A stretch of 20,812 nucleotides of DNA. Source: a virus. The stretch is from IMG/VR virus record IMGVR_UViG_3300020215_000677; one strand, written 5' to 3'. How positions within the stretch are numbered: the first letter of the stretch is position 1; every line of letters begins with the position of its first letter. The notes below the pieces were generated by a model. That model did no database searches and was not told the origin of the DNA. It saw nothing but the letters and a program-made list of their open reading frames with translations. Position numbers and translations under genes: made by a program. This document shows, one piece after another, positions 1-15,933 of this stretch.

Positions 1-127
1 CAGCGTGGTGCTTTTGTCAGTCGATCGGTAGGGTTCATGAGGTTGCTTCCCCTATCTGATCGGCACCCCGCCCCCGCTTCCCCCGGCCCTTCACATTGCC
101 GATGATGGCTTGCGAGCCGTGCGAGAC
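1..127. repeat. Terminal exact duplication, copy 1 (identical to 20686-20812); circular-contig overlap
   Basis: Base-by-base comparison: cagcgtggtgcttttgtcag...gagccgtgcgagac occurs at both window ends, 127/127 identical. The unique length is therefore 20,685 bp. Confidence 0.97.
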
Positions 128-721
128 GGTGACGTGCTTGACGACAATGCTTTGCTTGCCCTTGGCACGATAGACCTTGAGCGCCTGCATTTGAGCGGTG
201 AATGTGCGGGCGAAGCGATTAACTTGCCTCTCGAAACTTTCCTCTCGCACTAGATCCGTAGCAGCCGCGTGCTTGGCGGCCATCCGCATATAGGTGCAAT
301 GCGTTATCGCCATTTGCGAGGCGAGCATTACTTCGATTTCGTCTTTCGGGTTGATACCCTGAAGCACTGGAAGGCAGAAGTTTATAGCTTCCTCGTCGCG
401 CTCTGCCGCAAGGCTGTTTCTATCGGCGGTCGCCTCTGCGAGCTGCAATAGGAGCGTGCGAACGAACGGTTCATTCCCAACTGAATTTATGGAGGCAGCG
501 AATAGATCAAATGCCGCTCGCATGTTGGGGTGTTTCCAGCCAAACTGCCTTGTGATTTTGCCGCCTTCGGTTTTCTGGTCTTCAACCTTCATGCAAGGCG
601 ATGGGGCGCGGTGCTTCACGCGCCTGCGATGCGCGGCAAGGGTGCGCTTTTCCTCTTGCGTCGGCGCATACGCCGGCACGGCGGGAGTGTTTTCGTTGGT
701 TTCGGCCTCTCTCAATTCCAT
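35..721 (-). CDS. Hypothetical protein, 228 aa, in the virion-like operon
   Basis: Long ORF. Its TGA (35-37) overlaps the ATG (36-38, equal to 20721-20723 in the terminal copy) of the 81-aa ORF, giving ATGA coupling across the junction. Its start overlaps the upstream ORF by 10 nt. No family recognised. Confidence 0.75.
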   Translation of the reverse strand: MELREAETNENTPAVPAYAPTQEEKRTLAAHRRRVKHRAPSPCMKVEDQKTEGGKITRQFGWKHPNMRAAFDLFAASINSVGNEPFVRTLLLQLAEATADRNSLAAERDEEAINFCLPVLQGINPKDEIEVMLASQMAITHCTYMRMAAKHAAATDLVREESFERQVNRFARTFTAQMQALKVYRAKGKQSIVVKHVTVSHGSQAIIGNVKGRGKRGRGADQIGEATS

Positions 722-1101
722 GGCTCACCTGTGAGGTTGACGCCATGGGCTTGCAGGGTCGCGCCGGTCGTGGCGGTGATGTAGTCTTGAATCCGCTGCA
801 CCAGCCCCACGATGTACGGGACATATTCAGCCACGTTTTCCTCTTGCGGCTGATTGCTGGGGTGCATGGCGACCACAACCTCGCGAATGCATGAAAGGAG
901 GATCAGCGCGTCAACCGGCATCTTTGGCTCTAGGGTGCCGATGACACCTAGGCGCTCGATTGCCTCTGCATACAGGCGAGCCGTCTCCTCCTGGCTTATT
1001 TCGGCTTGGCGCAAGGTGAAGCTCTGGAATGCCTTCCCGAGCGCGAGCGCATGGGGAATAAACGGCGAGTCAGCCGCCTTGCCTTGATGAACGCTACTCA
1101 T
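712..1101 (-). CDS. Hypothetical protein, 129 aa
   Basis: AGGAGG lies 9 nt upstream of ATG 1101. There is an ATGA overlap with the stop of the 70-aa ORF (tcat at 1098-1101). Confidence 0.75.
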   Translation of the reverse strand: MSSVHQGKAADSPFIPHALALGKAFQSFTLRQAEISQEETARLYAEAIERLGVIGTLEPKMPVDALILLSCIREVVVAMHPSNQPQEENVAEYVPYIVGLVQRIQDYITATTGATLQAHGVNLTGEPWN

Positions 1102-1310
1102 CGGGGTATACCTCCTAGCTCGATGTCAAAGAGCGAGTTGCCACAGGGCGCGAATAGCTGGCTGGTGAATTGGAGCCGGCTTGCAAAGCTCGCCATATTC
1201 GCCGTGGTCATGCTTGGCGTGTACCACTTGGCGGTCTGGGCGGTCGGCTCGTTTGGGCCATTGATTGCCATTCCCATCGTCGCGTGTTTCCTTTTCATCG
1301 CCTGGCTCAT
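1098..1310 (-). CDS. Small hypothetical protein, 70 aa, filling the gap in the operon
   Basis: ATGA stop/start overlaps at both ends (tcat at 1307-1310 and 1098-1101) and G/C-rich third codon positions. It competes with a plus-strand ORF (1123-1371) that has two TM-like helices. Confidence 0.5.
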   Translation of the reverse strand: MSQAMKRKHATMGMAINGPNEPTAQTAKWYTPSMTTANMASFASRLQFTSQLFAPCGNSLFDIELGGIPR

Positions 1311-3430
1311 TGACGTAAGAGACCGAGCGACCGGCCGGCTGTCGGAGACAGAAGACCAACAGAGCGAGTGAGAACCTTTGTCGCGATTATCTCGATATTG
1401 CGTGCGGTGCGCTGGTTCTGCGGAAGGCGCGCGGCCATCTGCTGTAATTGCCTAATCAGCTTGTCACGCTGAGCGCCGGTAGAGGTTAGCCTATCGGCTG
1501 TTTCCCTAATCGTGCGCTGCAGGCCAGAACCGAGCGCACCAGCTGCCTGGCCTCCTAAGCGCCGCCCGATAGTGCCGATTGCCGCGCCTGTTGCGCCAAG
1601 GACGCCGCCGCCAGCGTAGCCGCCAACTGCGGACGATGTAACGTCACCAAGCAGACCGCGCCCGGATCTTCCCCACATTTCCTCGGAAACTTGGGTAAGC
1701 GGAGCGGTGCGGCTGTTGCGCCGGACATCGGCAAGGTTAGATGTTTCGGTGAATGTTTCCTCTCGGCCAATGCCACGGCGCAAGCGCTCTGCGCCTTGCG
1801 TGCCTATGGAAGCCTCAAGCTTCTGCTGTGCGGCGTTGCTGCCTAGAATGCGATCAATGGTGAGCCCCGGATTCTGACGCGGCCGGTCAAGCTTCTGCTC
1901 AATATCGTAGCGCATACCAGCGTTTGACATTTGCCGTTCGGGCGCTGAGTAGCCGGCGACGTTCGCGCGATGCTGGCCTACCGAAACATCGTCCCGCAAA
2001 GCGCGGCGGCCGGATTCATAAGCGCTCTGCTGCCGTGCAATCGGGGCAAAGGCTTCATCCGCCTCTCGAAAGCCTGGAACATGGGTCTTGAGGGCATCAT
2101 CAACAGCGCCGCGAATATCGCTTAGGATGCCCTGAGCGGCCTTGTCTTTGCTGCTATAGCCGAAGCGCGCGACTTGATCGGTCTCTATCTCGGCATCAAG
2201 AGCTTGCCTGATTCGCTGTAGACGGCCGGCCGTAGCTTCGGGCGACGGGGCGTCGAAAGCATCATCAATCTGCCGCAGCCATCGGATGACCGTATCTCTT
2301 TCCGCTGCGGTGTAACGTGCATTGGATAAGCGGTCGGCTATCTGCAGCCGAACTTCAGGAGGGATTGCCGGCGCATTGGTCAATGCGTCTTCGTATTGCG
2401 GCCCGATGCTGCCGCGCTGGGCGCGATTAGATTGCATCTGAGCGTAGGGGTCAGCAGGCGGGCCGATAGTCGCATCTAGGTCTTGCGCAATGCGCTGTGG
2501 TGCCCGGTCCATGCGCCCACCAAGGCGCTCTGACACAAGAGCCCCCGCGCCGGGGTCTCTGCTGGCCGTTGCTCCGGTAACAACCTGCATACCGGGATTT
2601 ACGTCCGCAAGCATACCTTCGGGGCCAAGCTCATCAAGGCGCTGTTGCGCCTGTGCTGGCGAAAGGCCCGTGGCCTGAAGCCGTTCAAGTATCTTGCGCA
2701 CTGCGGCCGGGCTTTGAATGCCGCGATTTGATAGCCAGTTAGCAACGCTGTTCCAGCTCGCACCGATAGCGCGTCCCGCTAGCGGAGCTGCAGAGCCAAG
2801 GATTGAGCCAATGCCCGCGCCAACGCTTGTGTTTTGAAGCCGCTCGCTTATGCTGTCAGCGTCCTGAATCGCGCCGCCTATGCCGCCATAAGTGCCCGCC
2901 GTTATTGCGGCGTTGCCAGTGCGAGGGAGAAGCCCCGCACCCTTGAAGGCGGAAATAGCCGGCAGGCGAGCGATGCCAACGCCAAGGCCGGCAGCTTGCC
3001 CAACGCGCTTTTTGACAGGGTGCTGTTGTCCATACTGCTCTTGCGCGGCGCGCTGTTCTGCAAGCTCGCGATTGTATGGAGTAGAGAAGTCCCAACCCTT
3101 GCCTTGAATGGCCCCCACAGTCGCATCAATCAGGCCAACGCCGGCAGCATTCAACTTGCTCTGGCCGCCCATGGTGAGAAAATCCATCGTTTCCTGACCC
3201 ATGGTCCAAGGTGCGGCAGTGCCGGCAGATGCAGAGCCTCTTAGTTGCTCTGCGGAAACGCCTTCGGAGGCAACATATTCGTCAATCTCTGACTCAGGAG
3301 CGCCTAGGTCAATCATACGCTCGATGTTTTCTTTGATGCGATCAATGTCCGCTTGGTTGCTTGACGCTGATTGTGCGCCGGCCTGGCCTGTTACCAGAGC
3401 CGAAAGTCCGTAAGGCGCGACGCGATCCAT
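1307..3430 (-). CDS. Large Gly/Ala-rich virion-like protein, 707 aa (possible internal/ejection or tape-measure-like protein)
   Basis: ATG at 3430 has AGGAG 8 nt upstream and a TAATG overlap with the upstream stop. The ORF-track start at 3451 is GTG. The protein has several Gly-rich hydrophobic stretches (AAGLGVGIARLPAISAF, GGYAGGGVLGATGAAIGTIG). The function is inference only. Confidence 0.8.
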   Translation of the reverse strand: MDRVAPYGLSALVTGQAGAQSASSNQADIDRIKENIERMIDLGAPESEIDEYVASEGVSAEQLRGSASAGTAAPWTMGQETMDFLTMGGQSKLNAAGVGLIDATVGAIQGKGWDFSTPYNRELAEQRAAQEQYGQQHPVKKRVGQAAGLGVGIARLPAISAFKGAGLLPRTGNAAITAGTYGGIGGAIQDADSISERLQNTSVGAGIGSILGSAAPLAGRAIGASWNSVANWLSNRGIQSPAAVRKILERLQATGLSPAQAQQRLDELGPEGMLADVNPGMQVVTGATASRDPGAGALVSERLGGRMDRAPQRIAQDLDATIGPPADPYAQMQSNRAQRGSIGPQYEDALTNAPAIPPEVRLQIADRLSNARYTAAERDTVIRWLRQIDDAFDAPSPEATAGRLQRIRQALDAEIETDQVARFGYSSKDKAAQGILSDIRGAVDDALKTHVPGFREADEAFAPIARQQSAYESGRRALRDDVSVGQHRANVAGYSAPERQMSNAGMRYDIEQKLDRPRQNPGLTIDRILGSNAAQQKLEASIGTQGAERLRRGIGREETFTETSNLADVRRNSRTAPLTQVSEEMWGRSGRGLLGDVTSSAVGGYAGGGVLGATGAAIGTIGRRLGGQAAGALGSGLQRTIRETADRLTSTGAQRDKLIRQLQQMAARLPQNQRTARNIEIIATKVLTRSVGLLSPTAGRSLGLLRQ

Positions 3431-4101
3431 TAGCTTAACTCCTGAGGCCACGCGGCCTTCAGCTGATCCACCGTTGTGGCTTTAGAGAAGTCCCGCTTGT
3501 ACGCGGCCTTAAGCGCCGCCTTTCTTGCAGCAATCTCGTTCATCGCTTGGGAGCGCGTGGCGGGCTCGTCAATTTCCTTTGCGAGGATTTCTGCGTTGGC
3601 AAGTTCAAGAAGTTTGCGGTTGTAAGCAATGTAAGCTCTGTTATCAGCTATTAGACGGGCCTTTTCCATGTTGTGCCCGAGCTTGCCGTCCGCGACTTCC
3701 CAAGCATCCCTGAAAGCATGGTCATGCTTGATGCGGCCCTTCTCGTCCACAATTCCTATCTTCGAGTCGATTAGCTCTTGCCGCGTTAGCTTGCGTATTG
3801 TTGAAACCCTGGCGGCATGCGCCGGGTGCTTTGCAGAAACAATTTGTTCGGCGCGACGAAACTCGCACGTGTACCCTTGGAGAGAATCGGCCTCCAAGTC
3901 GGCAGGGTCAACGTTCTGGTCCCCTATATCAACCTCGCCGCCGCTTCCATCGGCAAAGCTCCCATATAGAACGCGCCTGCCGTTTCGCTTTCTACTGCCG
4001 CGAACGGTAAACACGGCTCCATCTGTTTTCCGAATAAGCGTGCGCGGGCGGCTGCCGTATATCTCAACCGAGCCATCTGAATTGACAAGAACGTGTCTCA
4101 T
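3430..4101 (-). CDS. Hypothetical protein, 223 aa
   Basis: ATG 4101 forms an ATGA overlap with the stop of the 419-aa ORF (tcat at 4098-4101) and has GGGGGA 6 nt upstream. An alternative start at 4131 gives 233 aa. Confidence 0.75.
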   Translation of the reverse strand: MRHVLVNSDGSVEIYGSRPRTLIRKTDGAVFTVRGSRKRNGRRVLYGSFADGSGGEVDIGDQNVDPADLEADSLQGYTCEFRRAEQIVSAKHPAHAARVSTIRKLTRQELIDSKIGIVDEKGRIKHDHAFRDAWEVADGKLGHNMEKARLIADNRAYIAYNRKLLELANAEILAKEIDEPATRSQAMNEIAARKAALKAAYKRDFSKATTVDQLKAAWPQELS

Positions 4102-5357
4102 GCCAGGTCCCCCATTCCTAGGAAGCTCCATGTTGCATTCCCTGAGCCCGAAGAGGGATCGGCGCCGCTGCCAGCTTCCACAACGCTCCTGAGAATGACC
4201 GAGCCCGCCGCCTTGGCGTCATAGGTCGCGCTATAAACCAGCGTCATGTCGTCTTCCGCGCGAGAGACAAGGCAGGCCCAATCAACACCAGACATATCGG
4301 TGTCTAGGTTGACGGTCATTGCGCCCGTTGCGGTGTCAGCCACCGTGTCCACGTTGTAGTCCGTTTCAATGGTGGTAGAGTTTGCAAGAAACTCTCCCCA
4401 TGCTTTCGGATGGCCGGGGTGATAGTGCTGGAAAAAGGGCGAGGAAAATGCAACGCCTGTGCCTGCTGCCTCCATCGCCGGCTGACCCGCTGTAAGTGGC
4501 CCAACTATGCGCCACTTTTGGCTTGTATTGTCATACCAGCCAACCAGCGTCATTTCAGCGCCCAGATTGCACTGGCCGTTTGAGTCGAAGATGAAACGAT
4601 TAGCCTCCGCCGAAGCCGCATCATTCCGGTCTAGTTGGATTAAGTTGCTTCCGGCATTTACGAGGAGAACCATTCTCCCGTCAGCGCCCCCAGCGAGGCC
4701 CGTAATATCTCGACTGGCATCGCTTGAAAGTCGGAACACCGTTGCTGTTGCGTGACCAGTTGGGGCGTAGTCGTTCTGATCTGCGGTGATCTGCGATGGG
4801 GTAAGGTCGCCGGATAGAGCTAATTCCTTCGCAATCGTAACGGTGTTGTTGAAAGTCTCTGTGCCGGCATGGGTGTTATTGCCTGTGAAGGCATTGGCCG
4901 ATGCAAGCGCAACCGCATCGCCGTCAACATTCACAAGGACAAACGAATCATCGGCTAAGTTATAGGCAACGCTAATCAGGTCGCCGCTTGCCAGCTCGCC
5001 AGACGACAAAGCCGTTTTAACGCCGGCAACTATCTTCTTTATGGTCTTCGCACCAAGCGAGTTTATGTTTAGGGTTGCTGAGCCTGTGTTGGCGAAATTC
5101 GTATAGAAGGTGAAGATTTGGCCGTCATAGAGAGCGGCTGGCACTACCGAGTAGGTCAGGACATAAGCGTTGGCTGAGCCGGTGCTAGTCCGCGTGGCAT
5201 TGCGCCAGTTCCATTCGCGGGTAACAGCGCCTTGTAGCGCCCGCGCGGAATCATTGATCTGGCTTGGCGCTTGACCTTCGGCCCAGGTTGGGACCGTGCC
5301 TGAATTGTTGTCCGCGTCGGCCTGTCGGAAGACTGACGTGTTGCCTATCTCGGCCAT
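4098..5357 (-). CDS. Tail-fibre-like / receptor-binding-like protein, 419 aa
   Basis: The N-terminus (...APSQINDSARALQGAVTREW...) and the following ...GSANAYVLTYSVVPAALYDGQIFTFYTNFANTGSATLNINSLGAKTIKK... match, from memory, the conserved N-terminal module of many proteobacterial prophage tail fibre proteins. Not verified by search. Confidence 0.7.
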   Translation of the reverse strand: MAEIGNTSVFRQADADNNSGTVPTWAEGQAPSQINDSARALQGAVTREWNWRNATRTSTGSANAYVLTYSVVPAALYDGQIFTFYTNFANTGSATLNINSLGAKTIKKIVAGVKTALSSGELASGDLISVAYNLADDSFVLVNVDGDAVALASANAFTGNNTHAGTETFNNTVTIAKELALSGDLTPSQITADQNDYAPTGHATATVFRLSSDASRDITGLAGGADGRMVLLVNAGSNLIQLDRNDAASAEANRFIFDSNGQCNLGAEMTLVGWYDNTSQKWRIVGPLTAGQPAMEAAGTGVAFSSPFFQHYHPGHPKAWGEFLANSTTIETDYNVDTVADTATGAMTVNLDTDMSGVDWACLVSRAEDDMTLVYSATYDAKAAGSVILRSVVEAGSGADPSSGSGNATWSFLGMGDLA

Positions 5358-5358
5358 G

Positions 5359-6600
5359 TCATTGCCCCCTCGGTCTTAAGCCGTATTTTGCTCGCAGCTC
5401 ATCGCCGCGCGACTTGAGATTGTCAGGGTGCAGATTGCTTTTTCTCGCGAACGGCACGACGCCGTAAGTGTAGTCGGGCGCAACCTCATCGGGATTCAGC
5501 CCCCGCTGCCTGGCAAGATCCTGATAGGTCTGCCTTGTAGTGCTGTAGGATGAAAGCTGGCTCTGATACTGAGCCGTGGCCTGATCTAGGAAGGCATCGC
5601 GAAGATCAGGGGAAAGTTTGTCGCCCTTGCGGAGATTGTTGTAGAGGGTGATAATATTTTCGGGCACGCCGCCCGCGTTTGCCGCGTTCGCATACTCGCC
5701 TTGCATGACCGTGCTGCCAGGGTCGAGCATCTTCATGTAGCTGAAGATCAGCGCAATATCAGCCGGGCCGGGGTTATCCGGGTTTGCAACCGCGCCTTCA
5801 TAGGCGCTCACGATATTCTGATAAGCAACGCGCTTTTTCTCAAAGGGCTCTGCCGCCTTGGTGTAATCAGTGCGGAGGTCTCGCGCCTGCTTGAAATCGC
5901 GGCCTTCACCTTCGTTGCGGTTCGGGCGTTCGCCAATCTTGCGCTTGTTGCCGCTTCCCCGCTCTATTTCATAAACGCCGTCCTCAAGGATCACCGTGTC
6001 ATATTTGGGCTCATCAGGTCCGCCCGTCGCAATCGGTTTATTGTCTGGCCCAAAGCGCGTTTGACCGGGACCGAGTGTGTACGGCTCGCCGCCGCCTTGG
6101 AGCTTCAAGAGAACTTCGCCGGCCTTACCAGGGAAGGCGCGGACAAACTTCTGCAAATCTGGCGGCAATGTGGGCAGCAGCGCTTCAAGCGCCTGCCTCT
6201 GGTTTTCTTCCTCTTGTCGTTTCCGCTGCAGCTCGTCCGTTTGGAATTTCCAAAGCGCGTCCTGCGTGTAGTTTTCGCGGCCTTGCTGCATTCCTTGAAC
6301 CGCACCCTTTGCCGCGCGACCTATGACGCCGCCAAAGCCTTGCGGCGGGGCGTGCGGGTCTGGGTTCATCATCGCAAGACCGGCTTGCACTAGTGCGTTG
6401 TTAATCTGCGCGCGGCGCATCTCGGCAGGATCGAACAATGGCGGAAGATTGCCCCCGAGCGCGTTCGCGCTGGGTTTCCCTGTTCCAGGGATTCCTGCGA
6501 GCGCTCCGATGCCCGGAACGCCGGAAATTCGACTCAGATTCCTAAGCCCCAGAAGACCGGGGATTTGCGTGGGTCCAATCGGACCCAGAAGGCCAACCAT
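5359..6600 (-). CDS. Hypothetical virion-like protein, 413 aa; first gene of the late-like operon
   Basis: GAGGA lies 8 nt upstream of ATG 6600. The N-terminus is Gly/Pro-rich, the middle is coiled and charged, and the C-terminal half carries the motif IALIFSYMKMLDPGSTVMQGEYANA. No family confidently recognised. Confidence 0.8.
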   Translation of the reverse strand: MVGLLGPIGPTQIPGLLGLRNLSRISGVPGIGALAGIPGTGKPSANALGGNLPPLFDPAEMRRAQINNALVQAGLAMMNPDPHAPPQGFGGVIGRAAKGAVQGMQQGRENYTQDALWKFQTDELQRKRQEEENQRQALEALLPTLPPDLQKFVRAFPGKAGEVLLKLQGGGEPYTLGPGQTRFGPDNKPIATGGPDEPKYDTVILEDGVYEIERGSGNKRKIGERPNRNEGEGRDFKQARDLRTDYTKAAEPFEKKRVAYQNIVSAYEGAVANPDNPGPADIALIFSYMKMLDPGSTVMQGEYANAANAGGVPENIITLYNNLRKGDKLSPDLRDAFLDQATAQYQSQLSSYSTTRQTYQDLARQRGLNPDEVAPDYTYGVVPFARKSNLHPDNLKSRGDELRAKYGLRPRGQ

Positions 6601-6798: not shown

Positions 6799-7662
6799 TC
6801 ACGCTGCTTTCTTCATCCCAACTGCCTCTAAGAGCTGCGGTGTTATCATTGAAGCCGGCACACAACACTTGCGCTCGCCTGGCCTCGGCCCCCAATCGGG
6901 TGACCATTCCTTGCGAGTGAGCGCAGCCTGTATGCGATAGCTCCATTGAGCATTATCAAGCGACGCAGGATCTGGCGGAAGCGGATGCGATTTCGCAAGC
7001 GCAGCCTCAATATACGAAACGGGATCAGCCGTTCCCGCTCGCTTCGCGGCATTGATGACGGAGAGAAGCGCGTCGGGGTTTTCGCCCATGCGCGTCCGCT
7101 TCGCCCATTTGCCGATCAATGAACGCGCGCGGGCCTCTGGCTGATACGGTCTCAGAAGGGCAAGGGCTTCATTCCAAATAATACTCCCTCTTGTGGGCGC
7201 GTTAGCGCCCCTGCCGGGAGGCAATGTCTCCGCTTGGGAAGTGATGCCCGGAAAATCTCCGCTCTCCGTAGGAGTACTATAAGGGTTCAATAAGGGGTTG
7301 GGGGCATGTGGTGCCGGGTTTTGTGGAATGACATGCCGGGTTTCTTCAATAAAGGGGGCATGTGGTGCCGGGTTTACAAGCGCCAACGCGTTCAATGCAT
7401 CAATGTCGAGACGGTATATTGTCGGCCTGTTTCGGCCGCCACCAGGCGCGACGAGAACAAGGACGCCCATCGCTTGCAGACGCCGCATTGCCAGCCTTAC
7501 AGCTCGTTCACATAGCTCCGTCTCGCGAGCAATCTTAGCGAGTGACGGATAGATGCGCGTTCCATCGTCTCTCGCAACATCGGCAAGTCTGACCGCGACC
7601 GCCTTAATAGGCACCGAACCGAACCGGCGCGCGTAAACGAGATTGATAAGCTTGTTGCTCAT
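6799..7662 (-). CDS. Replication initiator-like protein with N-terminal winged-helix HTH, 287 aa
   Basis: The N-terminus (...YPSLAKIARETELCERAVRLAMRRLQAMGVLV...) looks like HTH_36-type phage/plasmid replication proteins. The C-terminus (...LIGKWAKRTRMGENPDALLSVINAAKRAGTADPVSYIEAAL) is typical of phage replication proteins. The start overlaps the dnaB stop by 4 nt (7659-7662). Confidence 0.75.
   Translation of the reverse strand: MSNKLINLVYARRFGSVPIKAVAVRLADVARDDGTRIYPSLAKIARETELCERAVRLAMRRLQAMGVLVLVAPGGGRNRPTIYRLDIDALNALALVNPAPHAPFIEETRHVIPQNPAPHAPNPLLNPYSTPTESGDFPGITSQAETLPPGRGANAPTRGSIIWNEALALLRPYQPEARARSLIGKWAKRTRMGENPDALLSVINAAKRAGTADPVSYIEAALAKSHPLPPDPASLDNAQWSYRIQAALTRKEWSPDWGPRPGERKCCVPASMITPQLLEAVGMKKAA
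7286..7375. repeat. Iteron-like direct repeats inside the initiator gene (candidate ori)
   Basis: The exact 22-mer gggggcatgtggtgccgggttt occurs at 7300-7321 and 7354-7375, each preceded by ttcaataa(g/a)gg. A partial third copy, catgccgggttt, lies at 7332-7343. The repeats encode the duplicated NPAPHAP in the linker between the two protein domains. Confidence 0.6.
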
Positions 7663-9095
7663 GCCGGGGCCTCGCTCCGGTCAAGGATGACGTTAGCGCC
7701 CATGTCGGCCCATAGGTCTATTGAGCCAATCGGGCCTGACCTTTGCTTAGCGAGAATGACTTCAAGCGAATTTGAGCACCTTGCGAGTTGGCAAAGGCGG
7801 TCAGCATCTTCGGCCACGTTCTTGCCGCGCGCTCGCTCAAGGTAGTAGGCGTCACGAAACAGGAATGCGACAACATCAGCGTCTTGCTCGATTGCGCCGG
7901 ACTCTCTCAAGTCCGCCAGCGTTGGGCGCTTGTCGTCGCGCCCTTCAACAGCACGGTTCAACTGAGCGAGCGCGATAAGCGGAATATTCAGCCGCTTTGC
8001 GGCTTCGGCTAGACCGGCGCTTATGTCGGAATATTCCGCAACCCGGCTTTGGGCTCCGGGTGATCTCATCTTGTGGACGTGATCGACAATGACAAGATCC
8101 AGCCCCGAGCCCTTGGCCTTGAGCTTCGCGGCGATCACCCGGGCTCTGGCTTCCAGTTCGGCAGCGCTTAGACCCGGCTCATCTTCGATGATGAGAGGCC
8201 ATGACGCCATTTCCTGCACGGCGCTCGCAAGGTGTCTCCGTTGCTCCGGTAAGATGTTCTTGCCGCGCAAAATGTCCTGATACGTGGGCGAGGCAATGCC
8301 AGGCATCCACACCCGCGCCGAAAGAAAGCGGGGCGTCAAGATGGGCGCTGGCATCTCTAAACTGAAGTAGGCAACGCCGCTGCCCCGGCTTGCCACGTTC
8401 AAGGCGAGCTGCGTTGCCAAGGCAGTCTTGCCCATCGAAGGGCGAGCGCCGATCACAACATATTCGCCGCGCCGAAAGCCGCCCGTCATTTCGTCAAGCT
8501 CGGCCAAGCCCGTCATGACTGCATTAGGATCGGGCGTGCCGGCGCTTAGTTGCTCCAAGCGGCGAAGCGTATCACTGCCGGCCTCTTGCAGCGTGAAGGT
8601 TGTTTTGCGCTCGGCCGTCCCGTCGAATGTGGACATCAAGCCGGTGATATGAGCGGATAGGGACTTGCGAAACTCGCTTGCGTCAGTCTCTTGTGCGGCG
8701 GCTTCTCGCATTTCCTGTGAGGCGCGCATGACCGCTCGTCGGTCGGCAAGGCAGCGGATAAGATCAGCAGTGGCAGGAATGCCAATTCTCGGCCCAGCCG
8801 CACCGACAAGGCGGGCGATGTAATTGAAGCCTCCGACTTCGGCCAATGTCTCGTCATGCTCAAAATGGCTCTTGAGAATGACCGGCGAAACGAATTTGCC
8901 TTCTCCCGATAGCTCTAGAACCTTTTCATATATGCGCGCGTGCAGCCCTTCATAAAATTGCTCGGGCTTCAGCTTGTGAGCGACCAGCGGCCAGCTATCG
9001 GAATAGGCGAGAATGCTCCCTAGTAGGGCCTGTTCCGCCTCAATGTTGTGGGGCAGGGGCTCATACTCTCGGGGCCTTAGCTGAATTACACCCAT
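7659..9095 (-). CDS. dnaB: Replicative DNA helicase, DnaB family
   Basis: N-terminal signature HNIEAEQALLGSIL, Walker A GARPSMGKTALA, and DLVIVDHV / IPLIALAQLNR motifs. ATG 9095 has GGAGGG 8 nt upstream. The ORF-track start at 9134 would overlap the upstream gene. Confidence 0.93.
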   Translation of the reverse strand: MGVIQLRPREYEPLPHNIEAEQALLGSILAYSDSWPLVAHKLKPEQFYEGLHARIYEKVLELSGEGKFVSPVILKSHFEHDETLAEVGGFNYIARLVGAAGPRIGIPATADLIRCLADRRAVMRASQEMREAAAQETDASEFRKSLSAHITGLMSTFDGTAERKTTFTLQEAGSDTLRRLEQLSAGTPDPNAVMTGLAELDEMTGGFRRGEYVVIGARPSMGKTALATQLALNVASRGSGVAYFSLEMPAPILTPRFLSARVWMPGIASPTYQDILRGKNILPEQRRHLASAVQEMASWPLIIEDEPGLSAAELEARARVIAAKLKAKGSGLDLVIVDHVHKMRSPGAQSRVAEYSDISAGLAEAAKRLNIPLIALAQLNRAVEGRDDKRPTLADLRESGAIEQDADVVAFLFRDAYYLERARGKNVAEDADRLCQLARCSNSLEVILAKQRSGPIGSIDLWADMGANVILDRSEAPA

Positions 9096-9402: not shown

Positions 9403-9782
9403 TAGGCCGCCTCCTGTCGCAGAACGCACCCAGGACGGCCGCTTTCATTTTCGGCACCAGATGACGGCTCATCCTCTAAATCGCCGCCAGCGGCGCGTTC
9501 CACATACCGCCGCAAGTTAATGCCGGCCTGTGTCTCGCTCACCGTCAGCCGGGCAAGCTTTTCAATGTCGCCCTTCAGTCTGGGAAAGCCTCTGGTATTG
9601 TCCCACATCTCGATAGGGCCAGTGATGTTTTGAGCCAGCAAGCAGCGGGCAGCATCAAGCATTGGCTGGCTTGTTCCCTCAAGCAGTAGGGGGCCGTCCG
9701 CGCTGTTCAAATGAACCGCATACCTAGGACCGCGCTTGCCGTGACCTCGTAGGGAAATGAGAATGCGATGGGGGGCGCTCAT
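9402..9782 (-). CDS. Hypothetical protein, 126 aa
   Basis: Internal ATG 9782 makes an ATGA overlap with the stop of the 105-aa ORF (tcat at 9779-9782). The 203-aa version in the ORF track would fully overlap that gene in another frame. Confidence 0.65.
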   Translation of the reverse strand: MSAPHRILISLRGHGKRGPRYAVHLNSADGPLLLEGTSQPMLDAARCLLAQNITGPIEMWDNTRGFPRLKGDIEKLARLTVSETQAGINLRRYVERAAGGDLEDEPSSGAENESGRPGCVLRQEAA

Positions 9783-10096
9783 GCTGCGGCCCTCTTGCCA
9801 TCCTGATCGGATTTGACGACCAGTGAAATTCTTGACCGCAGCACGTATCGGGCGTGATGGCCTGCGAACTGGCCGCCGTGACTTTCGGTGATAGTCTCGA
9901 CGGCGAAGCCCAGCCCGCGCAATTGGTAGACATAGTGGCTCCACCTTGGCGCTGGGTTGTGGTACGGGGTGCAGCCTTCCGGGCCAGCACGGTGCAGCTC
10001 TAACAAAGCCCATGCCGGCCTGCCGTCAATGGTCATGGCCTGCCCATCGGGAAGCACGCGAGCGATGACGGTTAGGGTGTTCTTGCGCTTACCCAT
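9779..10096 (-). CDS. Winged-helix DNA-binding protein (HTH_39-like), 105 aa
   Basis: The pattern ...RPAWALLELHRAGPEGCTPYHNPAPRWSHYVYQLRGLGFAVETITESHGGQFAGHHARYVL matches, from memory, the phage/plasmid winged-helix family that ends in ARY-x-L. Confidence 0.7.
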   Translation of the reverse strand: MGKRKNTLTVIARVLPDGQAMTIDGRPAWALLELHRAGPEGCTPYHNPAPRWSHYVYQLRGLGFAVETITESHGGQFAGHHARYVLRSRISLVVKSDQDGKRAAA

Positions 10097-10313: not shown

Positions 10314-10589
10314 TCATGCCATTGGAAGCAACCCCCGTTTTTCCGCTTCGGCTGCTGTCTCTTTCAAGCCCTCAATGAGGGGGCGAAGCGCCGAAAGAGC
10401 GATGACCATTCCTCTGCGCGTATCTTCAGAGCCCTCCATCGCCCGCAAATCCACTTCGCCCCGATCTGGGCCGCGCGGGATTAGCGCGAGGCGAATGTCC
10501 TCGGTCACAGGCTGCTGATAGTGGAGGCCCACGCGGCGGCTTTTTTTCTGCACGTGTGGGATTCGCAATGTGAAGACCGCCCTAGACAT
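10314..10589 (-). CDS. Hypothetical protein, 91 aa
   Basis: TAATG overlap with the xis stop (cattag at 10587-10592). No family recognised. Confidence 0.65.
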   Translation of the reverse strand: MSRAVFTLRIPHVQKKSRRVGLHYQQPVTEDIRLALIPRGPDRGEVDLRAMEGSEDTRRGMVIALSALRPLIEGLKETAAEAEKRGLLPMA

Positions 10590-10801
10590 TAGGCAGCTGC
10601 CCCCGTCTCAAGCGTCGGCAGTGAGCGCAAGTAGCTCTGCACGTCCTCGAAAAGCAGAAGCGTGCGAGCGCCGCACTTCCGCGCTTTCAGTTTGCCGGTC
10701 CCTATTTCCTCGTAGACAGTAGATCGGCACACGCCGATGTACCGTGCCGCCTCCTCGACGGACATTGCGCCGATATTCGGAGTGGCGATTTGTGGGTCCA
10801 T
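10589..10801 (-). CDS. xis: Excisionase/AlpA-type helix-turn-helix DNA-binding protein, 70 aa
   Basis: MSVEEAARYIGVCRSTVYEEIGTGKLKARKCGARTLLLFEDVQSYL is the classic excisionase-family (MerR-superfamily) HTH pattern. GAGGAGA lies 6 nt upstream of the ATG. Confidence 0.85.
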   Translation of the reverse strand: MDPQIATPNIGAMSVEEAARYIGVCRSTVYEEIGTGKLKARKCGARTLLLFEDVQSYLRSLPTLETGAAA

Positions 10802-10926: not shown

Positions 10927-12111
10927 TTACTGTGCTTTCTGTCCTTTGCGACCAGCAAGGAAACGCTGGCGAACCTTTTCAACGTGGTCCCGCACTGATG
11001 AGCGAGAAGGCGCTGACGACCAATTTTTCTGGCGTTCGCACCATTCCATCATTTCGTTGATGGCCGCTTGCTTATACCAGCCGCCGCCTATCTTCTTTGA
11101 AAAATCCCCCTCGTCTTCAAAACGCTGCAGCAGCACTGCGTCAAATTCATTCCAACGATATTCTTCTGGGCGATGCGCTGGCGGCACGTCTCGGGGCAAT
11201 GTTTGATCGGGCGCGCTGCCTCGTATTTGCCTGAGCCAAGTCTTGAGCGTTGCCGCCGTAATATACACATGGCTCCACTTTTCAGTAGGTGGCAGGTCAA
11301 GGTCTGGCTCGTCAATATCGCTGGGCTTCGGCTTTTTATCAATTGCGTTACCAAGCCAATTCGCCGCGCGCATGTCGCGAAACAGACTGGCGTCTATTTT
11401 CTGCGGTTCTGACTTGCCCGATGCAATGCCGCGTATGTCAATCTGGCCCTTGCTCGCGGCGTGGAAAAGCACGCGCGCAGCAAGGCTTCCTAGCTCATAA
11501 GGCATCGTGGGCGGCCATGCCTTGATAGCATCGGTGTCGTTATCAATATCTGAAAACCGCCCCGCCGCCAGAGCAACAATCGCCTCGGCCAGTGTCACGG
11601 ACTCTTGCCGCTTGGGCATTTCCAAGTCTCGAATGGGAAAGAGCGTGCAGTTGCTCTCACGCTCAAATGCGGCCACTTGCTCGTAAGAAAGCCTCTTGCC
11701 GTGGCTCTGTTCTATGAACCGCTGGACTAGGATAATATTGTTGGCCTTGCGTTCAATAGCCGCAAGGTCGTCAAGAGAAAGCAGGCTGCGCCATGGCTTA
11801 GGGATTTTGACGTCCGATCTAAAGCGCGACGCCCATTTGTGGCTTGGGCTCCTTAAGACACAGGCGCGCTGATAGATAAACCAACCAACCTCAACTAGTC
11901 TTTTATCGGAGATCAGCGCCGGGTCAGGTCCGGGCCTCCACTTCTCACCAGTCTGTTTATTCCAGAAGGCCACAACTGCACGAAAGGCCAGATTGACCTC
12001 GCCGGAGCGCTTTCTCCCTTGAGGAAAGCGGGCGCGGATGGCCCTATCGTAAACCATGCGCCCGATGATGTTTTTTTTCGGGCCGGGCTCGTCAAGCTCG
12101 GGGGTGTTCAT
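10927..12111 (-). CDS. Unknown 394-aa protein, translationally coupled to the integrase
   Basis: Its ATG (12109-12111) shares a base with the integrase TAA (12111-13), giving TAATG. No motif recognised. It contains an A8 run (T8 on plus, 12071-12078) at codons 11-13. Confidence 0.8.
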   Translation of the reverse strand: MNTPELDEPGPKKNIIGRMVYDRAIRARFPQGRKRSGEVNLAFRAVVAFWNKQTGEKWRPGPDPALISDKRLVEVGWFIYQRACVLRSPSHKWASRFRSDVKIPKPWRSLLSLDDLAAIERKANNIILVQRFIEQSHGKRLSYEQVAAFERESNCTLFPIRDLEMPKRQESVTLAEAIVALAAGRFSDIDNDTDAIKAWPPTMPYELGSLAARVLFHAASKGQIDIRGIASGKSEPQKIDASLFRDMRAANWLGNAIDKKPKPSDIDEPDLDLPPTEKWSHVYITAATLKTWLRQIRGSAPDQTLPRDVPPAHRPEEYRWNEFDAVLLQRFEDEGDFSKKIGGGWYKQAAINEMMEWCERQKNWSSAPSRSSVRDHVEKVRQRFLAGRKGQKAQ

Positions 12112-13346
12112 TAGGCGCTGCTTCCCTTCTCACGCGAAAGCTGCACAACATTGCTGGCGGCTTTGGGCTCGATGTAGTTGGCCCAGGCGCTCATGAGCTT
12201 CGCGCGCTTGGCAAGTAGATCGCCGCGCGCATAAGCCCGCTGCGTCTCATCCTCTGTTTTGTGGGCAAGAGCGCGCTCGCAGACTTCATAGGGAAAGCTT
12301 GTCGTCTCGTTGGCCCAATCGCGGAAGGTTGATCGGAAGCCGTGAACCGTGACGTGCTGAAAACCCATGCGGCGCAAGAGCATCAGCATGGACATATCAG
12401 ACATCGGCCGGTTGATTGTGTTGCCGGGAAAGAGATAATCGCCCCAACGGGTTTCCATGAGCTTGCGAATGATCTCGACGGCGCGCGGCGAAAGTGGAAC
12501 GCGGTGTTCCTCTCCCATCTTCATGCGCGCGGCGGGCACGGTCCAAATGTTCTTTGACAAGTCGATTTCGGTGAACTTGCCGTGCAGAACTTCGCTCGTT
12601 CGCAGCGCCGTCAGAATCGTCAGCTCCAAGGCATAGGCCGCAAGCGCGGTGTCAGCTTGCCGATTGCGCAGCTCAGCGATGAACGCCGGCACTTCGCTGT
12701 AGGGCAATGCGGGGTGATGGCGTCGGAGGCCGCGCTTGCGCTTCGGCAGGAGTCCTTTGAGGTTGTCTTTCCAGCGAGCGGGGTTTTCACCCGCGCGGTA
12801 GTTGTGCGACGTGGCGTAGCTCAGGACCGCCTCAAGCCGCCCGCGAAGCCTGCGGCCGGTCTCGGGAACGCGGTCCCAAACGGGGCGCAGCACGGCAAGA
12901 ACGTCCGTTACGCCAATGCTGTCAACCGGCTTGGCGCTCAGTGGAGCGGCCAGCACCTTGAGGGAATAGCGCCATTGATTCGCGTGTTTCTTATTCCGCC
13001 AGCCCCGCTCCATGGTCTTTAGGAACTCATCAACAACCTGGCCCCAGGTGCGCCGCAGATCCGTGGCGCGCTTCGCGGCGTCTCTTGCGGCCTGCGGGTC
13101 ATTACCAGCGGCCAATTCGTTGCGGGCGTCCTGGGCTTTGGTGCGGGCTTGCTGTAGCGTGACGCGGCCGATGGCGGCGGAGCCAAGGCCCAATTCCTTT
13201 TCCTTGCCCTTCCAGCGATAGCGAAACGTCCATTGCCGGGTGCCCGCCTTGGTGATGACCAGATAGAGATTGCCGCCGTCCCCATATCGGCCGGGCTCTT
13301 TAAGAGCTTCAATTTCCTTGACTGTCAGCCTGTTTAGGGCGCGCAT
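12111..13346 (-). CDS. int: Tyrosine recombinase / P4-type phage integrase with DUF4102-like arm-binding N-terminus
   Basis: The N-terminus is LTVKEIEALKEPGRYGDGGNLYLVITKAGTRQWTFRYRWKGKEKELGLG. Catalytic-region motifs are LTALRTSEV (R), HGFRSTFRDWA (H-x-x-R) and ALAH...RAYARGD (H, Y). Confidence 0.93.
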   Translation of the reverse strand: MRALNRLTVKEIEALKEPGRYGDGGNLYLVITKAGTRQWTFRYRWKGKEKELGLGSAAIGRVTLQQARTKAQDARNELAAGNDPQAARDAAKRATDLRRTWGQVVDEFLKTMERGWRNKKHANQWRYSLKVLAAPLSAKPVDSIGVTDVLAVLRPVWDRVPETGRRLRGRLEAVLSYATSHNYRAGENPARWKDNLKGLLPKRKRGLRRHHPALPYSEVPAFIAELRNRQADTALAAYALELTILTALRTSEVLHGKFTEIDLSKNIWTVPAARMKMGEEHRVPLSPRAVEIIRKLMETRWGDYLFPGNTINRPMSDMSMLMLLRRMGFQHVTVHGFRSTFRDWANETTSFPYEVCERALAHKTEDETQRAYARGDLLAKRAKLMSAWANYIEPKAASNVVQLSREKGSSA

Positions 13347-13668: not shown

Positions 13669-13713
13669 TTGTCGCATCTCCTAAGACGCCACATATTCCC
13701 GCCAGAGCCGCCC

Positions 13714-14184
13714 ATGCGCAAGCCTCCGAATCGGCCTTCCCTACCGCTTGTTATAGCCGCCGCCTGGTGCGTTGCGACTTCGACGGCAATGGCGGAGCCC
13801 TATACCTACCAGGGGTATCTGGTCCGGGTCATTGACGGCGATTCCATCGTGATCGACGTGCCAGCGTGGCCCGCTCCCTTCCGGCCGGCGCGTGTGCGCA
13901 TTGATGGGGTTAATTCACCCGAAAGCCGACGCGGCGTAGGCGGCGCCGAATGCGAGATTGAACGCAATCTCGGAAAACAGGTGAGCGCCTGGCTGCGGCA
14001 GAAGCTTCCGAAAGGATCTGCGGTCACGCTGGTTTGGGAAGGCAAGCGCGAAAAGTATGGGCGTTTGCTCGGCCGGATCATCATGCCGGACGGTCAGGAC
14101 GCGGCGGCGGCTATTGTGAAGGCTGGCTATGCCGTGAGCTACGATGGCGGCCGGCGCTTAGGCTGGTGCCGGTTCGGGCGCTAA
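13714..14184 (+). CDS. nuc: Secreted thermonuclease (staphylococcal-nuclease/SNase-like) homologue, 156 aa
   Basis: From ATG 13714 there is a signal peptide, MRKPPNRPSLPLVIAAAWCVATSTAMA. SNase-like motifs follow: RVIDGDSIVI, VRIDGVNSPE and EKYGRLLGRI...AAAIVKAGYA. The ORF-track start at 13669 is TTG. Confidence 0.8.
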   Translation: MRKPPNRPSLPLVIAAAWCVATSTAMAEPYTYQGYLVRVIDGDSIVIDVPAWPAPFRPARVRIDGVNSPESRRGVGGAECEIERNLGKQVSAWLRQKLPKGSAVTLVWEGKREKYGRLLGRIIMPDGQDAAAAIVKAGYAVSYDGGRRLGWCRFGR

Positions 14185-14442: not shown

Positions 14443-14482
14443 CTAACAATTGTTGCTGCTGTGCGGCAAGCCAAGGCTTCGA
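14443..14482. repeat. Left 40-bp inverted repeat
   Basis: Verified 40/40 complementary to 15000-15039. The match stops on both sides (a14442 against g15040; c14483 against t14999). Confidence 0.95.
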
Positions 14483-14496
14483 CGCCCCCCCCCGCT

Positions 14497-14904
14497 TTAA
14501 GAACAGGACCGGGTTAGCCGGCGCGGAACGGTCAGCATCCGGCTTGTGAGCCCGCCTTGCGAGTTGACCCATCGCCGGACAGGGGGCGAGAGCTGGCGCA
14601 TATAGAATGCTTTGGCAGCGGCGTTGCCCTTGCCAGCACCCCATGGCGCGTGAACCTTAAACGAGCCGCCCGGGCCAAGGCAGGCCCCGCAGCGGAGCGC
14701 CGCAGCAGCGCAAGCACTCTCGCAAGATGCAAAGACCCGAACGGGTTTAGCCCCGCAGAAGCGCACGATATATTCCAGAACATTGCCGCCCCGGTCGCGG
14801 GCAGTGATGTCGAGCGCAGCAGCAGGGCTTGAGAGAGAAAAGGCGAGGGCGATCAGCGCGGGCAGGAAGCGCCCCCTTGCCCCCGGAACAAGGGGAGCGC
14901 CCAT
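14497..14904 (-). CDS. Passenger ORF inside the IR-bounded segment: exported Cys-rich protein, about 135 aa
   Basis: ATG 14904 has GGGAGA 9 nt upstream (alternative ATG at 14913). The signal-peptide-like N-terminus is MGAPLVPGARGRFLPALIALAFSLSSPAAA. There are six Cys, and ...ASCESACAAAAL...FKVHAPW faintly recalls COG3904-type periplasmic proteins (weak). Confidence 0.55.
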   Translation of the reverse strand: MGAPLVPGARGRFLPALIALAFSLSSPAAALDITARDRGGNVLEYIVRFCGAKPVRVFASCESACAAAALRCGACLGPGGSFKVHAPWGAGKGNAAAKAFYMRQLSPPVRRWVNSQGGLTSRMLTVPRRLTRSCS

Positions 14905-15189
14905 CTCACGCATTCTCCCTAACGGTTGAAGGCGTGAGCATTCGCTTGAAAATGGCAATGCTCGTTTTCGGTCTGGCGACTGGCCGAAAGCTCTGCGCTT
15001 CGAAGCCTTGGCTTGCCGCACAGCAGCAACAATTGTTAGGAATTGTCGAGGGTCTGACGGGGCGAGCGGATTTGCTGCCCGGTTGATGGTGTAAACCCGG
15101 CCCTTGATCGGGCCGGGGCATGGCACGCCCCTGAGTTTCCAACCGTCGCGGATGCAAACGACCGCTTGTCCAGGGCGAAAGGCTGACAT
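14497..15189 (-). CDS. Uninterrupted 230-aa ORF, probably a chimera of a small phage gene 5' part with IR read-through and the passenger ORF
   Basis: ATG 15189 lies 9 nt after the stop of the upstream gene. Codons 1-50 (MSAFRPGQAVVCIRDGWKLRGVPCPGPIKGRVYTI...) lie outside the IR segment, codons 51-63 are encoded by IR-R, and the rest is interior sequence. Confidence 0.45.
   Translation of the reverse strand: MSAFRPGQAVVCIRDGWKLRGVPCPGPIKGRVYTINRAANPLAPSDPRQFLTIVAAVRQAKASKRRAFGQSPDRKRALPFSSECSRLQPLGRMREMGAPLVPGARGRFLPALIALAFSLSSPAAALDITARDRGGNVLEYIVRFCGAKPVRVFASCESACAAAALRCGACLGPGGSFKVHAPWGAGKGNAAAKAFYMRQLSPPVRRWVNSQGGLTSRMLTVPRRLTRSCS
15000..15039. repeat. Right 40-bp inverted repeat
   Basis: Reverse complement of 14443-14482, 40/40. 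Confidence 0.95.
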
Positions 15190-15198
15190 GACCCGCCC

Positions 15199-15933
15199 TC
15201 AAGCCGCCTGAGCCGCAACTAGGGTGCGGAGATTGCGCAGGACGCGGACAATGCTGTGGTCAATCTCGGGCGACCATGACGCGCCGCCTATTGCGCCATC
15301 CAGGTCCACGATTTCCGCTTGCGCGGCGATGCCCTGCAAGGTCGCGGCCTTCGTCCGCAGAATGCGCTTGAGCGAGCGCCACTGTTCCGAACACAGCCTT
15401 GACCACGCTTTCTCAAGGCGGTTATGCGCTGCCCAATTCCGTTTGTATGCGGCGTCCCGCTCATCAATTATGGCAATGAGCCGTTGCGCATGGGCGCGGC
15501 ATTCGTCAGTCGGCACAAACGCCACGCTGACGGGCTGACCGTTCTGGTAGGCTCCGCGACGGTTCAGCATGTTCAGCAGGCGCGCTTTCGTCCATGGCGC
15601 TCGCTCGTCAGGGAAGGTGTAAGGCGAGGCCCACAGGTTGCCGCGAATATTGATCTTCTCGAAAAGCTCGGGCGGCAGGGGCGGCTGTTGCGCCTCTCTC
15701 GCCTCTGCCTCTTTTGCAAGACGCGACAATTCCTTTTCGCCTTTGCGAATGACGCGCTGGCGTGCTTTCCACTGCCGGCATTGTGCCAGCAACTCGGCAT
15801 CGCCAGCGGTGAGCTGGCGAGCGGTGTTGCCTGCAATTGCGGCAACCGGGACCGAAGCGCCAGCCAATGCAACGGCGAGACCGCGCATCATGGACCGGCG
15901 AGACAAAGCGGGAGCGTTGGAAGAAACGCGCAT
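15199..15933 (-). CDS. Hypothetical protein with twin-arginine-like signal, 244 aa
   Basis: AAGGAGA lies 7 nt upstream of ATG 15933. The N-terminus MRVSSNAPALSRRSMMRGLAVALAGASVPVAA resembles a Tat signal (S-R-R-x-x-x-x-G-L followed by a hydrophobic stretch). The remainder is helical and charged. Confidence 0.8.
   Translation of the reverse strand: MRVSSNAPALSRRSMMRGLAVALAGASVPVAAIAGNTARQLTAGDAELLAQCRQWKARQRVIRKGEKELSRLAKEAEAREAQQPPLPPELFEKINIRGNLWASPYTFPDERAPWTKARLLNMLNRRGAYQNGQPVSVAFVPTDECRAHAQRLIAIIDERDAAYKRNWAAHNRLEKAWSRLCSEQWRSLKRILRTKAATLQGIAAQAEIVDLDGAIGGASWSPEIDHSIVRVLRNLRTLVAAQAA

Follow-up and report, generated by a model that had tools for sequence, protein, structure and literature searches.

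A circular 20.7-kb element with podoviral entry genes and no recognisable head genes, probably a satellite of alphaproteobacterial podoviruses

Introduction

How might an element that carries genes for a tail fibre, a wall hydrolase and large internal-virion proteins spread between cells if it encodes no recognisable capsid, portal or terminase? The question is raised by the IMG/VR virus record IMGVR_UViG_3300020215_000677, a stretch of 20,812 nucleotides that was analysed at its full length and is hereafter called the window. An earlier note, made from the letters alone, had offered two readings: (a) a tiny temperate virus whose head genes have diverged beyond recognition, or (b) a satellite that supplies its own adsorption and ejection proteins. 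Our results favour the second, on the strength of homologues among the post-nozzle genes of podoviruses and of a head-less layout that recurs in other loci. To judge from its gene content, the window is a complete circular, integrative and self-replicating element of 20.7 kb that would be incapable of building a virion, and it most likely spreads as a satellite, with a temperate Mx8/P22-like podovirus of Alphaproteobacteria as its helper.

A complete circle with its own integration and replication genes

The final 127 bases of the window (20686–20812, no strand) are an exact copy of the initial 127, an assembly overlap that marks circular closure and reduces the window to a circle of 20,685 bp. 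Two MEGAHIT contigs from two European Nucleotide Archive (ENA) samples (ERZ27252495 and ERZ27257312), each of 20,826 bp (20,685 + 141), are 100% identical to this circle. Because two further samples give the same circle, an assembly artefact is ruled out; three independent assemblies agree, and the circle is a genuine element. Almost every gene lies on the minus strand (the strand of all features below unless stated otherwise), in the order integrase, a 394-aa (amino acid) gene, HTH_17/AlpA, small genes including HTH_91, DnaB and an O-like initiator, followed by a block of virion-type genes (413, 419, 223, 707, 70, 129 and 228 aa and, past the circle junction, 81 and 867 aa). This block runs from 6600 to 35, crosses the junction and goes on from 20723 to 17862, as the earlier note had described, and the large open reading frames (ORFs) of the element are all intact.

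Domain matches in Pfam and PHROGs bear out the integrase, AlpA and replication module that had been proposed from the letters. Own integration and excision functions, expected of a satellite, are present as a three-domain integrase and an HTH_17/AlpA protein. The tyrosine integrase (12111–13346, 411 aa) carries Arm-DNA-bind_3, Phage_int_M and Phage_integrase domains, falls in phrog_1 and is 47% identical to the integrase of a related locus, L132 (related loci and phages are designated by L numbers). The AlpA/excisionase-type protein (10589–10801, 70 aa) matches HTH_17 (PF12728, E 1e-10) and the excisionase/regulator family phrog_66. Between it and the replication genes lies a 105-aa HTH_91 protein (9779–10096; phrog_25676, E 3e-25; PF22324 on the same gene in L005), homologues of which are found upstream of the replication genes in L008, L105, L106, L116, L126, L132 and L139.

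An autonomous replication module, likewise expected of a satellite, consists of DnaB, the O-like initiator and intragenic iterons. The DnaB-type replicative helicase (7659–9095, alternative end 9134; DnaB_C, E 3.8e-71; N-terminal domain, E 1e-22) is 34–37% identical to DnaB of L008, L105, L139 and L148, the highest value being that to L139. Its Walker A motif (8424–8447) is the only one detected in a scan of the real ORFs, in agreement with the earlier note. The lambda O-like initiator (6799–7662; phrog_391 and other initiator PHROGs, best E 2e-12) contains the probable replication origin (7300–7375, no strand; direct-repeat families D8 and D17), a stretch with two copies and one degenerate copy of the 22-nt iteron GGGGGCATGTGGTGCCGGGTTT. 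The initiator gene of L139 likewise holds iterons (ACGCGTCGAGCACGCGTG, two copies and one degenerate; L139 5193–5382), mirroring the arrangement in the window.

Absence of head and packaging genes

Pfam, PHROGs and NCBIfam gave no match between any window ORF and a capsid, portal, terminase, scaffold, adaptor or nozzle protein, and when 30-odd head and tail proteins of related phages were compared with the window by tblastn, none of these genes was found. The lack of a recognisable terminase, portal or capsid gene, noted from the letters, is thus upheld by profile libraries and direct comparison, and the structural comparison, which was run on the 413- and 707-aa proteins, also yielded no capsid, portal or terminase match. 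The window therefore lacks the gene set for building and filling a virion, as expected of a satellite. The trio of major capsid protein, portal and large terminase that marks an autonomous tailed phage (Caudoviricetes) is missing, and of the capsid, portal, protease and head–tail connector that characterise phage-inducible chromosomal islands of the capsid-forming kind (cf-PICIs) none is present.

Podoviral origin of the virion-type genes

The two large proteins at the centre of the block both have relatives in podoviruses. The 413-aa protein (5359–6600) matches phrog_13634 (E 9e-22) and is 50–55% identical to 346/353-aa proteins of podoviruses L001–L003. Its conserved C-terminal domain matches Mx8 p56, annotated as a "virion structural protein", and in some homologues this domain is joined to a peptidoglycan hydrolase domain (SLT, VanY, M15 or GH108). 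The family occurs in at least 533 IMG/VR loci; among the best 80 of them, most have a nozzle gene upstream and none is satellite-type. The 707-aa protein (707/714 aa; 1307–3430), whose gene invariably lies downstream of a 413-like gene, matches phrog_5880 over nearly its full length (E 1.5e-57) and shares 70% identity with a 690-aa protein of podovirus L001 and 52% each with a 708-aa protein of podovirus L002 and a 682-aa protein of podovirus L006. An exhaustive search placed 17,804 representative clusters in this family, and a broader family profile aligns with the N-terminal part of Mx8 p57, also annotated as a "virion structural protein" (hhalign probability 94.5%, E 7e-8).

AlphaFold models of both proteins are helical. 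That of the 413-aa protein (predicted local distance difference test score, pLDDT, 75) resembles no head protein; that of the 707-aa protein is all-helical with low-confidence Gly-rich segments and has no match in the PDB. Foldseek comparison of the two models with the PDB returned nothing below E 0.1, and the weak top matches, to alpha-pore-forming toxins and coiled coils, were not used. In a library of viral structures, the models match uncharacterised tailed-phage proteins only. PDB sequence and profile searches of the window proteins gave nothing significant, and the 707- and 228-aa proteins had no tblastn match among 50,697 phage records.

Between these two genes lie those for a tail fibre and a putative accessory protein. 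The 419-aa receptor-binding protein (4098–5357) is confirmed as tail-fibre-like by tail-fibre PHROGs, its C-terminus matching phrog_11355. Residues 2–141 are 59–61% identical to the fibres of phages L001–L003, the remainder being divergent, and residues 60–417 are 38% identical to the fibre of phage L006. A segment around residues 39–110 (5028–5243) shares ~40% identity over 73 residues with part of the SU10-type adaptor of L001 (E 1e-5) and may represent a common docking domain. A match to SAKe6BC in the PDB search (E 4e-7) covers ~30 residues and was dismissed as irrelevant. To judge by the position of its gene, the 223-aa protein (223/233 aa; 3430–4101) probably serves in fibre assembly or as a fibre accessory protein. 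Over its C-terminal ~105 residues it shares 31% identity with the 166-aa product of the post-fibre gene of L006, the sole match obtained in Pfam, PHROGs, PDB and phage comparisons.

The 867-aa protein (17862–20465) is predicted to be a virion-associated peptidoglycan hydrolase or large internal-virion protein. The peptidoglycan peptidase motif seen in the letters proved to be a Peptidase_M15_3 domain (residues 218–305), and residues 435–630 are 39% identical to a 650-aa lysozyme-domain protein encoded after the nozzle gene in L001. Phage counterparts bear different hydrolase domains (Hydrolase_2, VanY or Phage_lysozyme2). The protein also contains about seven copies of a 14-residue SGMAFNPGLPRNPI-like unit (Tandem Repeats Finder, TRF, period 42 nt at 18799–18899; region 18698–18986) and a low-complexity Ala/Ser/Gly repeat at its N-terminus (20219–20373).

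In phages, these genes have a well-defined place. On the ~32-kb contigs of the L001/L002 type, which hold the 707-aa homologues of 70% and 52% identity, an SU10-type adaptor, a nozzle and a large lysozyme-domain protein are followed by five small or mid-sized genes, the 413 homologue, the 707 homologue and the fibre. The L001 nozzle matches isolated podoviruses of 35–44 kb that infect Bradyrhizobium, Rhizobium, Paracoccus and Pelagibacter; an integrated relative is present in a Rhizobiales genome; and the contig of a more distant relative, L007, carries a major head protein (phrog_9953, E 1.4e-74) along with the cassette. Since relatives of the window's virion genes lie after the nozzle on contigs that carry head or adaptor genes, we conclude from homology and gene order that the former derive from the distal structural module of ordinary podoviruses of Alphaproteobacteria with head genes of their own, among them those for an HK97-type capsid, a P22-type portal and a terminase. 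Homologues of podoviral post-nozzle genes make up 9.4 kb, or 46%, of the element.

The same position can be followed into P22-like phages. L021 and L023, which both encode P22_portal, terminase (Terminase_3/6), Phage_capsid_3 and Phage_stabilise, have a 413-like gene exactly at the position of gene 20, preceded by genes whose sizes fit gp26, gp14 and gp7 and followed, at the position of gene 16, by a gene for a 627–833-aa protein. The arrangement typical of a P22 cassette, with two large proteins after the nozzle or needle and before the fibre, is found by synteny in L021, L023, Mx8 and L001. In the Mx8, P22 and LUZ24 lineages, the tail-tube genes have internal-virion and then fibre genes on their right, and the internal-virion proteins of phage ΦGT1 match syntenic Mx8 genes (PMC10386132). 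Compared with gp7/gp20/gp16 of P22 and p56/p57 of Mx8, the window's cassette thus shares its position (before the fibre or spike) and similar protein sizes; with the Mx8 proteins it shares sequence homology as well. It differs from both in standing on a head-less element, whereas theirs lie within phage genomes. We therefore regard the 413- and 707-aa proteins as putative ejection/internal-virion proteins, on the grounds of synteny, the virion annotation of their Mx8 homologues and composition, and not as members of the gp20 and gp16 families. Of the earlier suggestion that the large Gly-rich proteins serve in ejection or as tape measures, the former part stands and the latter falls. Comparison of both families with a Bradyrhizobium phage protein and with the 627-aa protein of L021 by hhalign revealed no homology, and the weak tblastn match between the 707-aa gene and P22 gp16, with E 0.018 in a set of 44 queries, was not significant.

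Two further features of these podoviruses were observed. Right after the gene at the gp16 position, several encode small multi-transmembrane or lipoprotein-like proteins on the reverse strand (L007 11889–12717, L006 10062–10774, L001 11985–12224, L023 13671–13847 and L022, i.e., Mx8, 11358–12654); lying where P22 has sieA, these are candidate superinfection-exclusion genes. In addition, HNH endonuclease genes occur in or near the internal-virion block (L001 8366–8908; L002 16419–16949).

A recurring head-less layout

The layout of the window is shared by at least nine further loci (L008, L105, L106, L116, L126, L132, L136, L139 and L148), in which integrase, alpA, replication genes and the ejection cassette occur without head genes; int, alpA, HTH_91 or DnaB/Rep occupy the space that capsid, adaptor and nozzle genes take up in phages. 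L008, a distant relative on a 21-kb contig that was read in part, encodes AlpA, HTH_91, DnaB and an initiator, then a 313-aa Peptidase_S74 virion protein, a 776-aa protein with a 413-like domain at its end and a 658-aa member of the 707 family, followed by regulators and cargo. A metagenome scan with the L008 branch of the family yielded 67 loci, which fall into four groups by their matches to a set of head, tail, replication and integrase proteins. Nineteen are phage-type, with a nozzle gene ~5 kb upstream of the 707-type gene and often a capsid gene further upstream. Eight are satellite-type, with int, alpA, HTH_91 or DnaB/Rep in that interval and not a single head or tail match, and 6 more bear a small protein that is otherwise confined to satellite-type loci. 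The remaining 34 are too short or too divergent for classing.

The contigs that hold L139 and L148 measure 0.69 and 1.42 Mb, and because of this chromosome-like size we take both relatives to be integrated. The integrase gene of L139 directly follows a VanZ-like gene, which presumably belongs to the host. A 13-bp repeat 20.5 kb apart in L139, considered as an attachment site, occurs at chance level.

Direct homology to P22 is found in the same family. Both L126 and L139 encode a P22 gp7 homologue (phrog_598, E 1.8e-16 and 3.3e-13; P22 gp7 itself scores 2e-95 against this reference) immediately ahead of the two large proteins, and this identifies the cassette as one of the P22 ejection type. 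Elements of the family are divergent, with identities of 34–37% for DnaB, 26–47% for the integrase and 26–36% for the 707-type protein (36% between window and L136). Between L126 and L132, the three cassette genes have a dN/dS of ~0.10 at an unsaturated dS of 0.75–0.82, a signature of purifying selection that marks these genes as functional. Several satellite 707-type proteins are closest to phage proteins (70% identity for the window, 65% for L106 and 62–63% for L148/L143), which suggests repeated gene exchange between satellites and phages.

The small protein mentioned above, of 142–146 aa (phrog_15261), is encoded after the ejection cassette in satellite-type loci (L008 10913–11341, L126 12750–13187 and L132 12223–12660; also L105, L113, L115, L119–L121, L143 and L148); no copy was found in the 19 phage-type loci. 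The L126 and L132 versions share 97% identity (dN/dS 0.02), and in the sister elements, not in the window, the protein has a weak match to a small terminase (phrog_641, E 2e-4). We regard it as a marker of the family and as a candidate factor in packaging or regulation.

Satellite or something else

Several results weigh against a satellite with a P22-type cassette. In the window, tRNA, Rfam and T-loop searches found no attP or tRNA-like site, and neither a pac or cos site nor a gene for a small terminase or for capsid size came to light. Mapping of the integrated relatives gave no convincing ends, no helper was identified in the source samples, and no non-coding similarity was found between the window and related phages. 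By hhalign, the 413- and 707-aa families have no sequence homology to P22 gp20 and gp16; a gp7 homologue, which belongs to the P22 cassette, is not detectable in the window; and the exclusion of head folds by structure is limited to the 413- and 707-aa proteins, the two covered by AlphaFold and Foldseek.

One rival explanation is that the window is the remnant of a defective prophage, i.e., of a podovirus that lost its head, portal, terminase and tail-hub genes, the leftovers having no role in transfer and the circle being an excised, self-replicating episome. The virion genes are clearly podoviral, as a remnant would require, the window offers no packaging determinant that we could find, and the three assemblies, clonal at 100% identity, could reflect one recent event. 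Yet at least nine divergent loci repeat the head-less layout, the cassette has been under purifying selection between two such elements (L126 and L132), and replication genes adjoin ejection genes in all loci, which random decay would not yield. With every large ORF of the window intact as well, we consider a remnant unlikely.

A second possibility assigns the same genes to defence: in an anti-phage interference island, the ejection and fibre homologues would act as dominant-negative decoys that poison podovirus assembly or entry and so protect the host. Satellites and islands often target phage structural proteins, as in the tail assembly interference of PICIs (PMC11364771), and at 50–70% identity to the phage versions the window's proteins are near enough for co-assembly. 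A decoy would hardly justify the cost of 9.4 kb, nearly half of the genome, however, and a full set of conduit proteins, wall hydrolase, fibre and accessory gene resembles a working entry kit, with no PADLOC defence match on any of these proteins. Interference is also compatible with self-transfer, the two not being mutually exclusive; as an explanation in its own right, we find it improbable.

Reading (a) of the earlier note, a very small autonomous temperate virus with head and packaging genes too divergent to recognise, draws on the ~10 ORFs of the window that have no detectable homologue in Pfam, PHROGs or NCBIfam. The coding capacity is too small for it: a single unassigned ORF (394 aa) is longer than 300 aa and DnaB holds the sole ATPase motif, so that portal, terminase and capsid cannot all hide in what remains. 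Moreover, the assigned proteins are those of tailed podoviruses, phages that require a terminase, portal, capsid, adaptor and nozzle, and the recognisable versions of the head and tail genes in close phages match nothing in the window. We regard this reading as very improbable. A plasmid or integrative conjugative or mobilisable element is scarcely credible, even though the window is circular, self-replicating and shares its 228-aa/HGGxSTG gene pair with alphaproteobacterial plasmids, because library scans of the window ORFs found no relaxase, coupling protein, type IV secretion domain or partition gene and no second ATPase, megablast of the whole element against 72,556 plasmids gave no match, and the integrase and AlpA are of phage type.

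Proposed life cycle

For the satellite that we favour, helper dependence, packaging and the role of the private ejection proteins are inferred; the indirect evidence for induction by a helper and packaging in its particles consists of the close homology to podovirus genes and the recurrence of such elements. The following sequence of events is proposed. In the presence of an active helper, the element would excise, replicate and express its late block, and the helper terminase would package its DNA into helper capsids. One possible mode is the packaging of two copies per head; these amount to 41.4 kb, within the 35–44 kb of related phages, and concatemers in full-size helper heads have been reported for PICMI and VEIME satellites (PMC9618062; PMC10803314), which makes this mode plausible by analogy. 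The satellite's ejection proteins would be loaded into helper heads, its wall hydrolase added and its own fibre mounted on the helper tail hub. The conserved N-terminus of the fibre, together with its divergent remainder, would fit mounting on a helper hub with another receptor specificity. The resulting particles would deliver satellite DNA through the satellite's own conduit and by its own choice of receptor.

What a satellite might gain from a private conduit is suggested by P22, where SieA, an inner-membrane protein of the prophage, blocks injection; mutations that escape this block map to the C-terminal ends of gp16 and gp20, and partial resistance to SieA is gained with ejection-protein genes of foreign origin (PMC10883804). 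P22 ejection proteins also vie with DNA for space in the head (PMC8402733). Speculatively, private ejection proteins could let the DNA enter cells that block those of the helper, or widen the host range, and a satellite that needs to enter helper lysogens would profit from them. We put forward only tentatively the broader idea of a widespread family of podovirus satellites whose private ejection proteins (and, in the window, fibre and hydrolase) re-equip helper heads and hubs, bypassing SieA-type exclusion or reaching hosts closed to the helper.

Plasmid-type cassette and other genes

Two genes of the block, whose products the earlier note had proposed to compare with virion folds, belong elsewhere. 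The 228-aa protein (35–721) is 47% identical to the product of a gene on plasmid pC of Methylobacterium sp. FF17, where its homologue is directly followed by an HGGxSTG gene in a non-phage context (L019 17785–18692). The next gene of the window, across the junction, encodes an 81-aa HGGxSTG-domain protein (20478–20723; NF041373, E 1.7e-4, below the curated cut-off). On this evidence of shared gene order, the pair is a cassette held in common with alphaproteobacterial plasmids and not a set of structural genes. Weaker relatives of the 228-aa protein are found on Microvirga, Sulfitobacter and Haematobacter plasmids. The neighbouring 129-aa protein (712–1101) has no significant match in Pfam, PHROGs, NCBIfam or PADLOC, and the 394-aa cargo protein between int and alpA (10927–12111), the sole unassigned ORF above 300 aa, has none in these four libraries or among PDB sequences.

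Two regulators lie beyond the virion-type block. A 75-aa HTH_3 protein is encoded at 17615–17842 (PF01381, E 1.9e-8), and a 78-aa helix-turn-helix (HTH) protein at 16323–16559 on the plus strand (transcription-regulator and repressor PHROGs, best E 2e-8; HTH_31 on the same gene in L004). The latter, opposite in strand to most genes, is a possible repressor. Promoter- and terminator-like sites are no commoner in the window than in shuffled sequence.

Near the integrase end, a 43-nt inverted repeat, 98% complementary, brackets a 511-nt segment (14443–15039) with a single gene (14497–14913, minus strand) for a 138-aa protein with a signal-peptide-like N-terminus and homologues in L001 (124 aa) and L006 (123 aa); the segment could be a small mobile cassette or invertible. 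Further predicted exported proteins cluster here, namely a staphylococcal nuclease-like protein with a signal peptide (13669–14184, plus strand; PADLOC "SNc+LTD", E 2e-7), a 244-aa protein with a twin-arginine-like signal (15199–15933, minus strand) and a 137-aa protein with a signal peptide (16753–17166, plus strand). The nuclease is the sole real PADLOC match in the window, no virion or cargo protein scoring above noise.

Comparison with known satellites

Phage satellites are a known kind of element, and those described so far borrow an entire virion, remodel the capsid or, in the case of cf-PICIs, make the heads themselves and borrow tails. In the literature that we searched, a family whose defining feature is a cassette of ejection proteins (in the window joined by a fibre) is undescribed, and no paper linking satellites with ejection or internal-virion proteins was found.

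The earlier note had likened the window to PICI- and P4-type satellites; the likeness holds for the layout of the backbone and fails for membership of either family. With the AlpA-type PICIs of Gram-negative bacteria the window shares the co-oriented order of integrase, cargo, alpA, replication genes and late block, and PICIs are likewise integrative, self-replicating and devoid of most virion genes. They carry genes for packaging or capsid redirection (terS, rpp, cpm-type) and none for ejection proteins or fibres, whereas the reverse is true of the window, which is also larger (20.7 kb) and has a podovirus of Alphaproteobacteria as its putative helper. P4, too, has an integrase and its own replication genes and depends on a helper for head and tail, as the window would. 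Unlike the window, however, P4 alters capsid size and has no entry proteins, and no window ORF matches Sid, Psu, Delta, Epsilon or the alpha primase-helicase in PHROGs or Pfam. PICMI and the marine VEIMEs are, like the window, small integrative satellites without capsid-remodelling genes. They are minimalist (<5 kb to 16.8 kb), and major capsid genes have not been reported in them, whereas the window devotes 46% of its DNA to virion proteins.

If the proposed role is correct, the ejection proteins of short-tailed phages would constitute a swappable specificity module and a target in conflicts among phages, prophages and satellites. This raises the questions of whether ejection proteins from another replicon can load in trans into helper heads and whether, as the escape of P22 from SieA suggests, they determine the range of cells open to entry. 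The analysis also gives a functional context to two very large "unknown" phage families, phrog_5880 and phrog_13634.

The closest parallel in principle is offered by cf-PICIs, which, like the window, make part of the virion and borrow the rest. Their particles are chimeric and their host range can change, according to a preprint (bioRxiv 10.1101/2025.02.11.637232). In contrast to cf-PICIs, which make heads and borrow tails, the family of the window would borrow heads and tail hubs and supply ejection proteins and, in the window, a fibre. A satellite lineage with DNA-entry machinery as its hallmark would, if confirmed, be the missing mirror image of the cf-PICIs.

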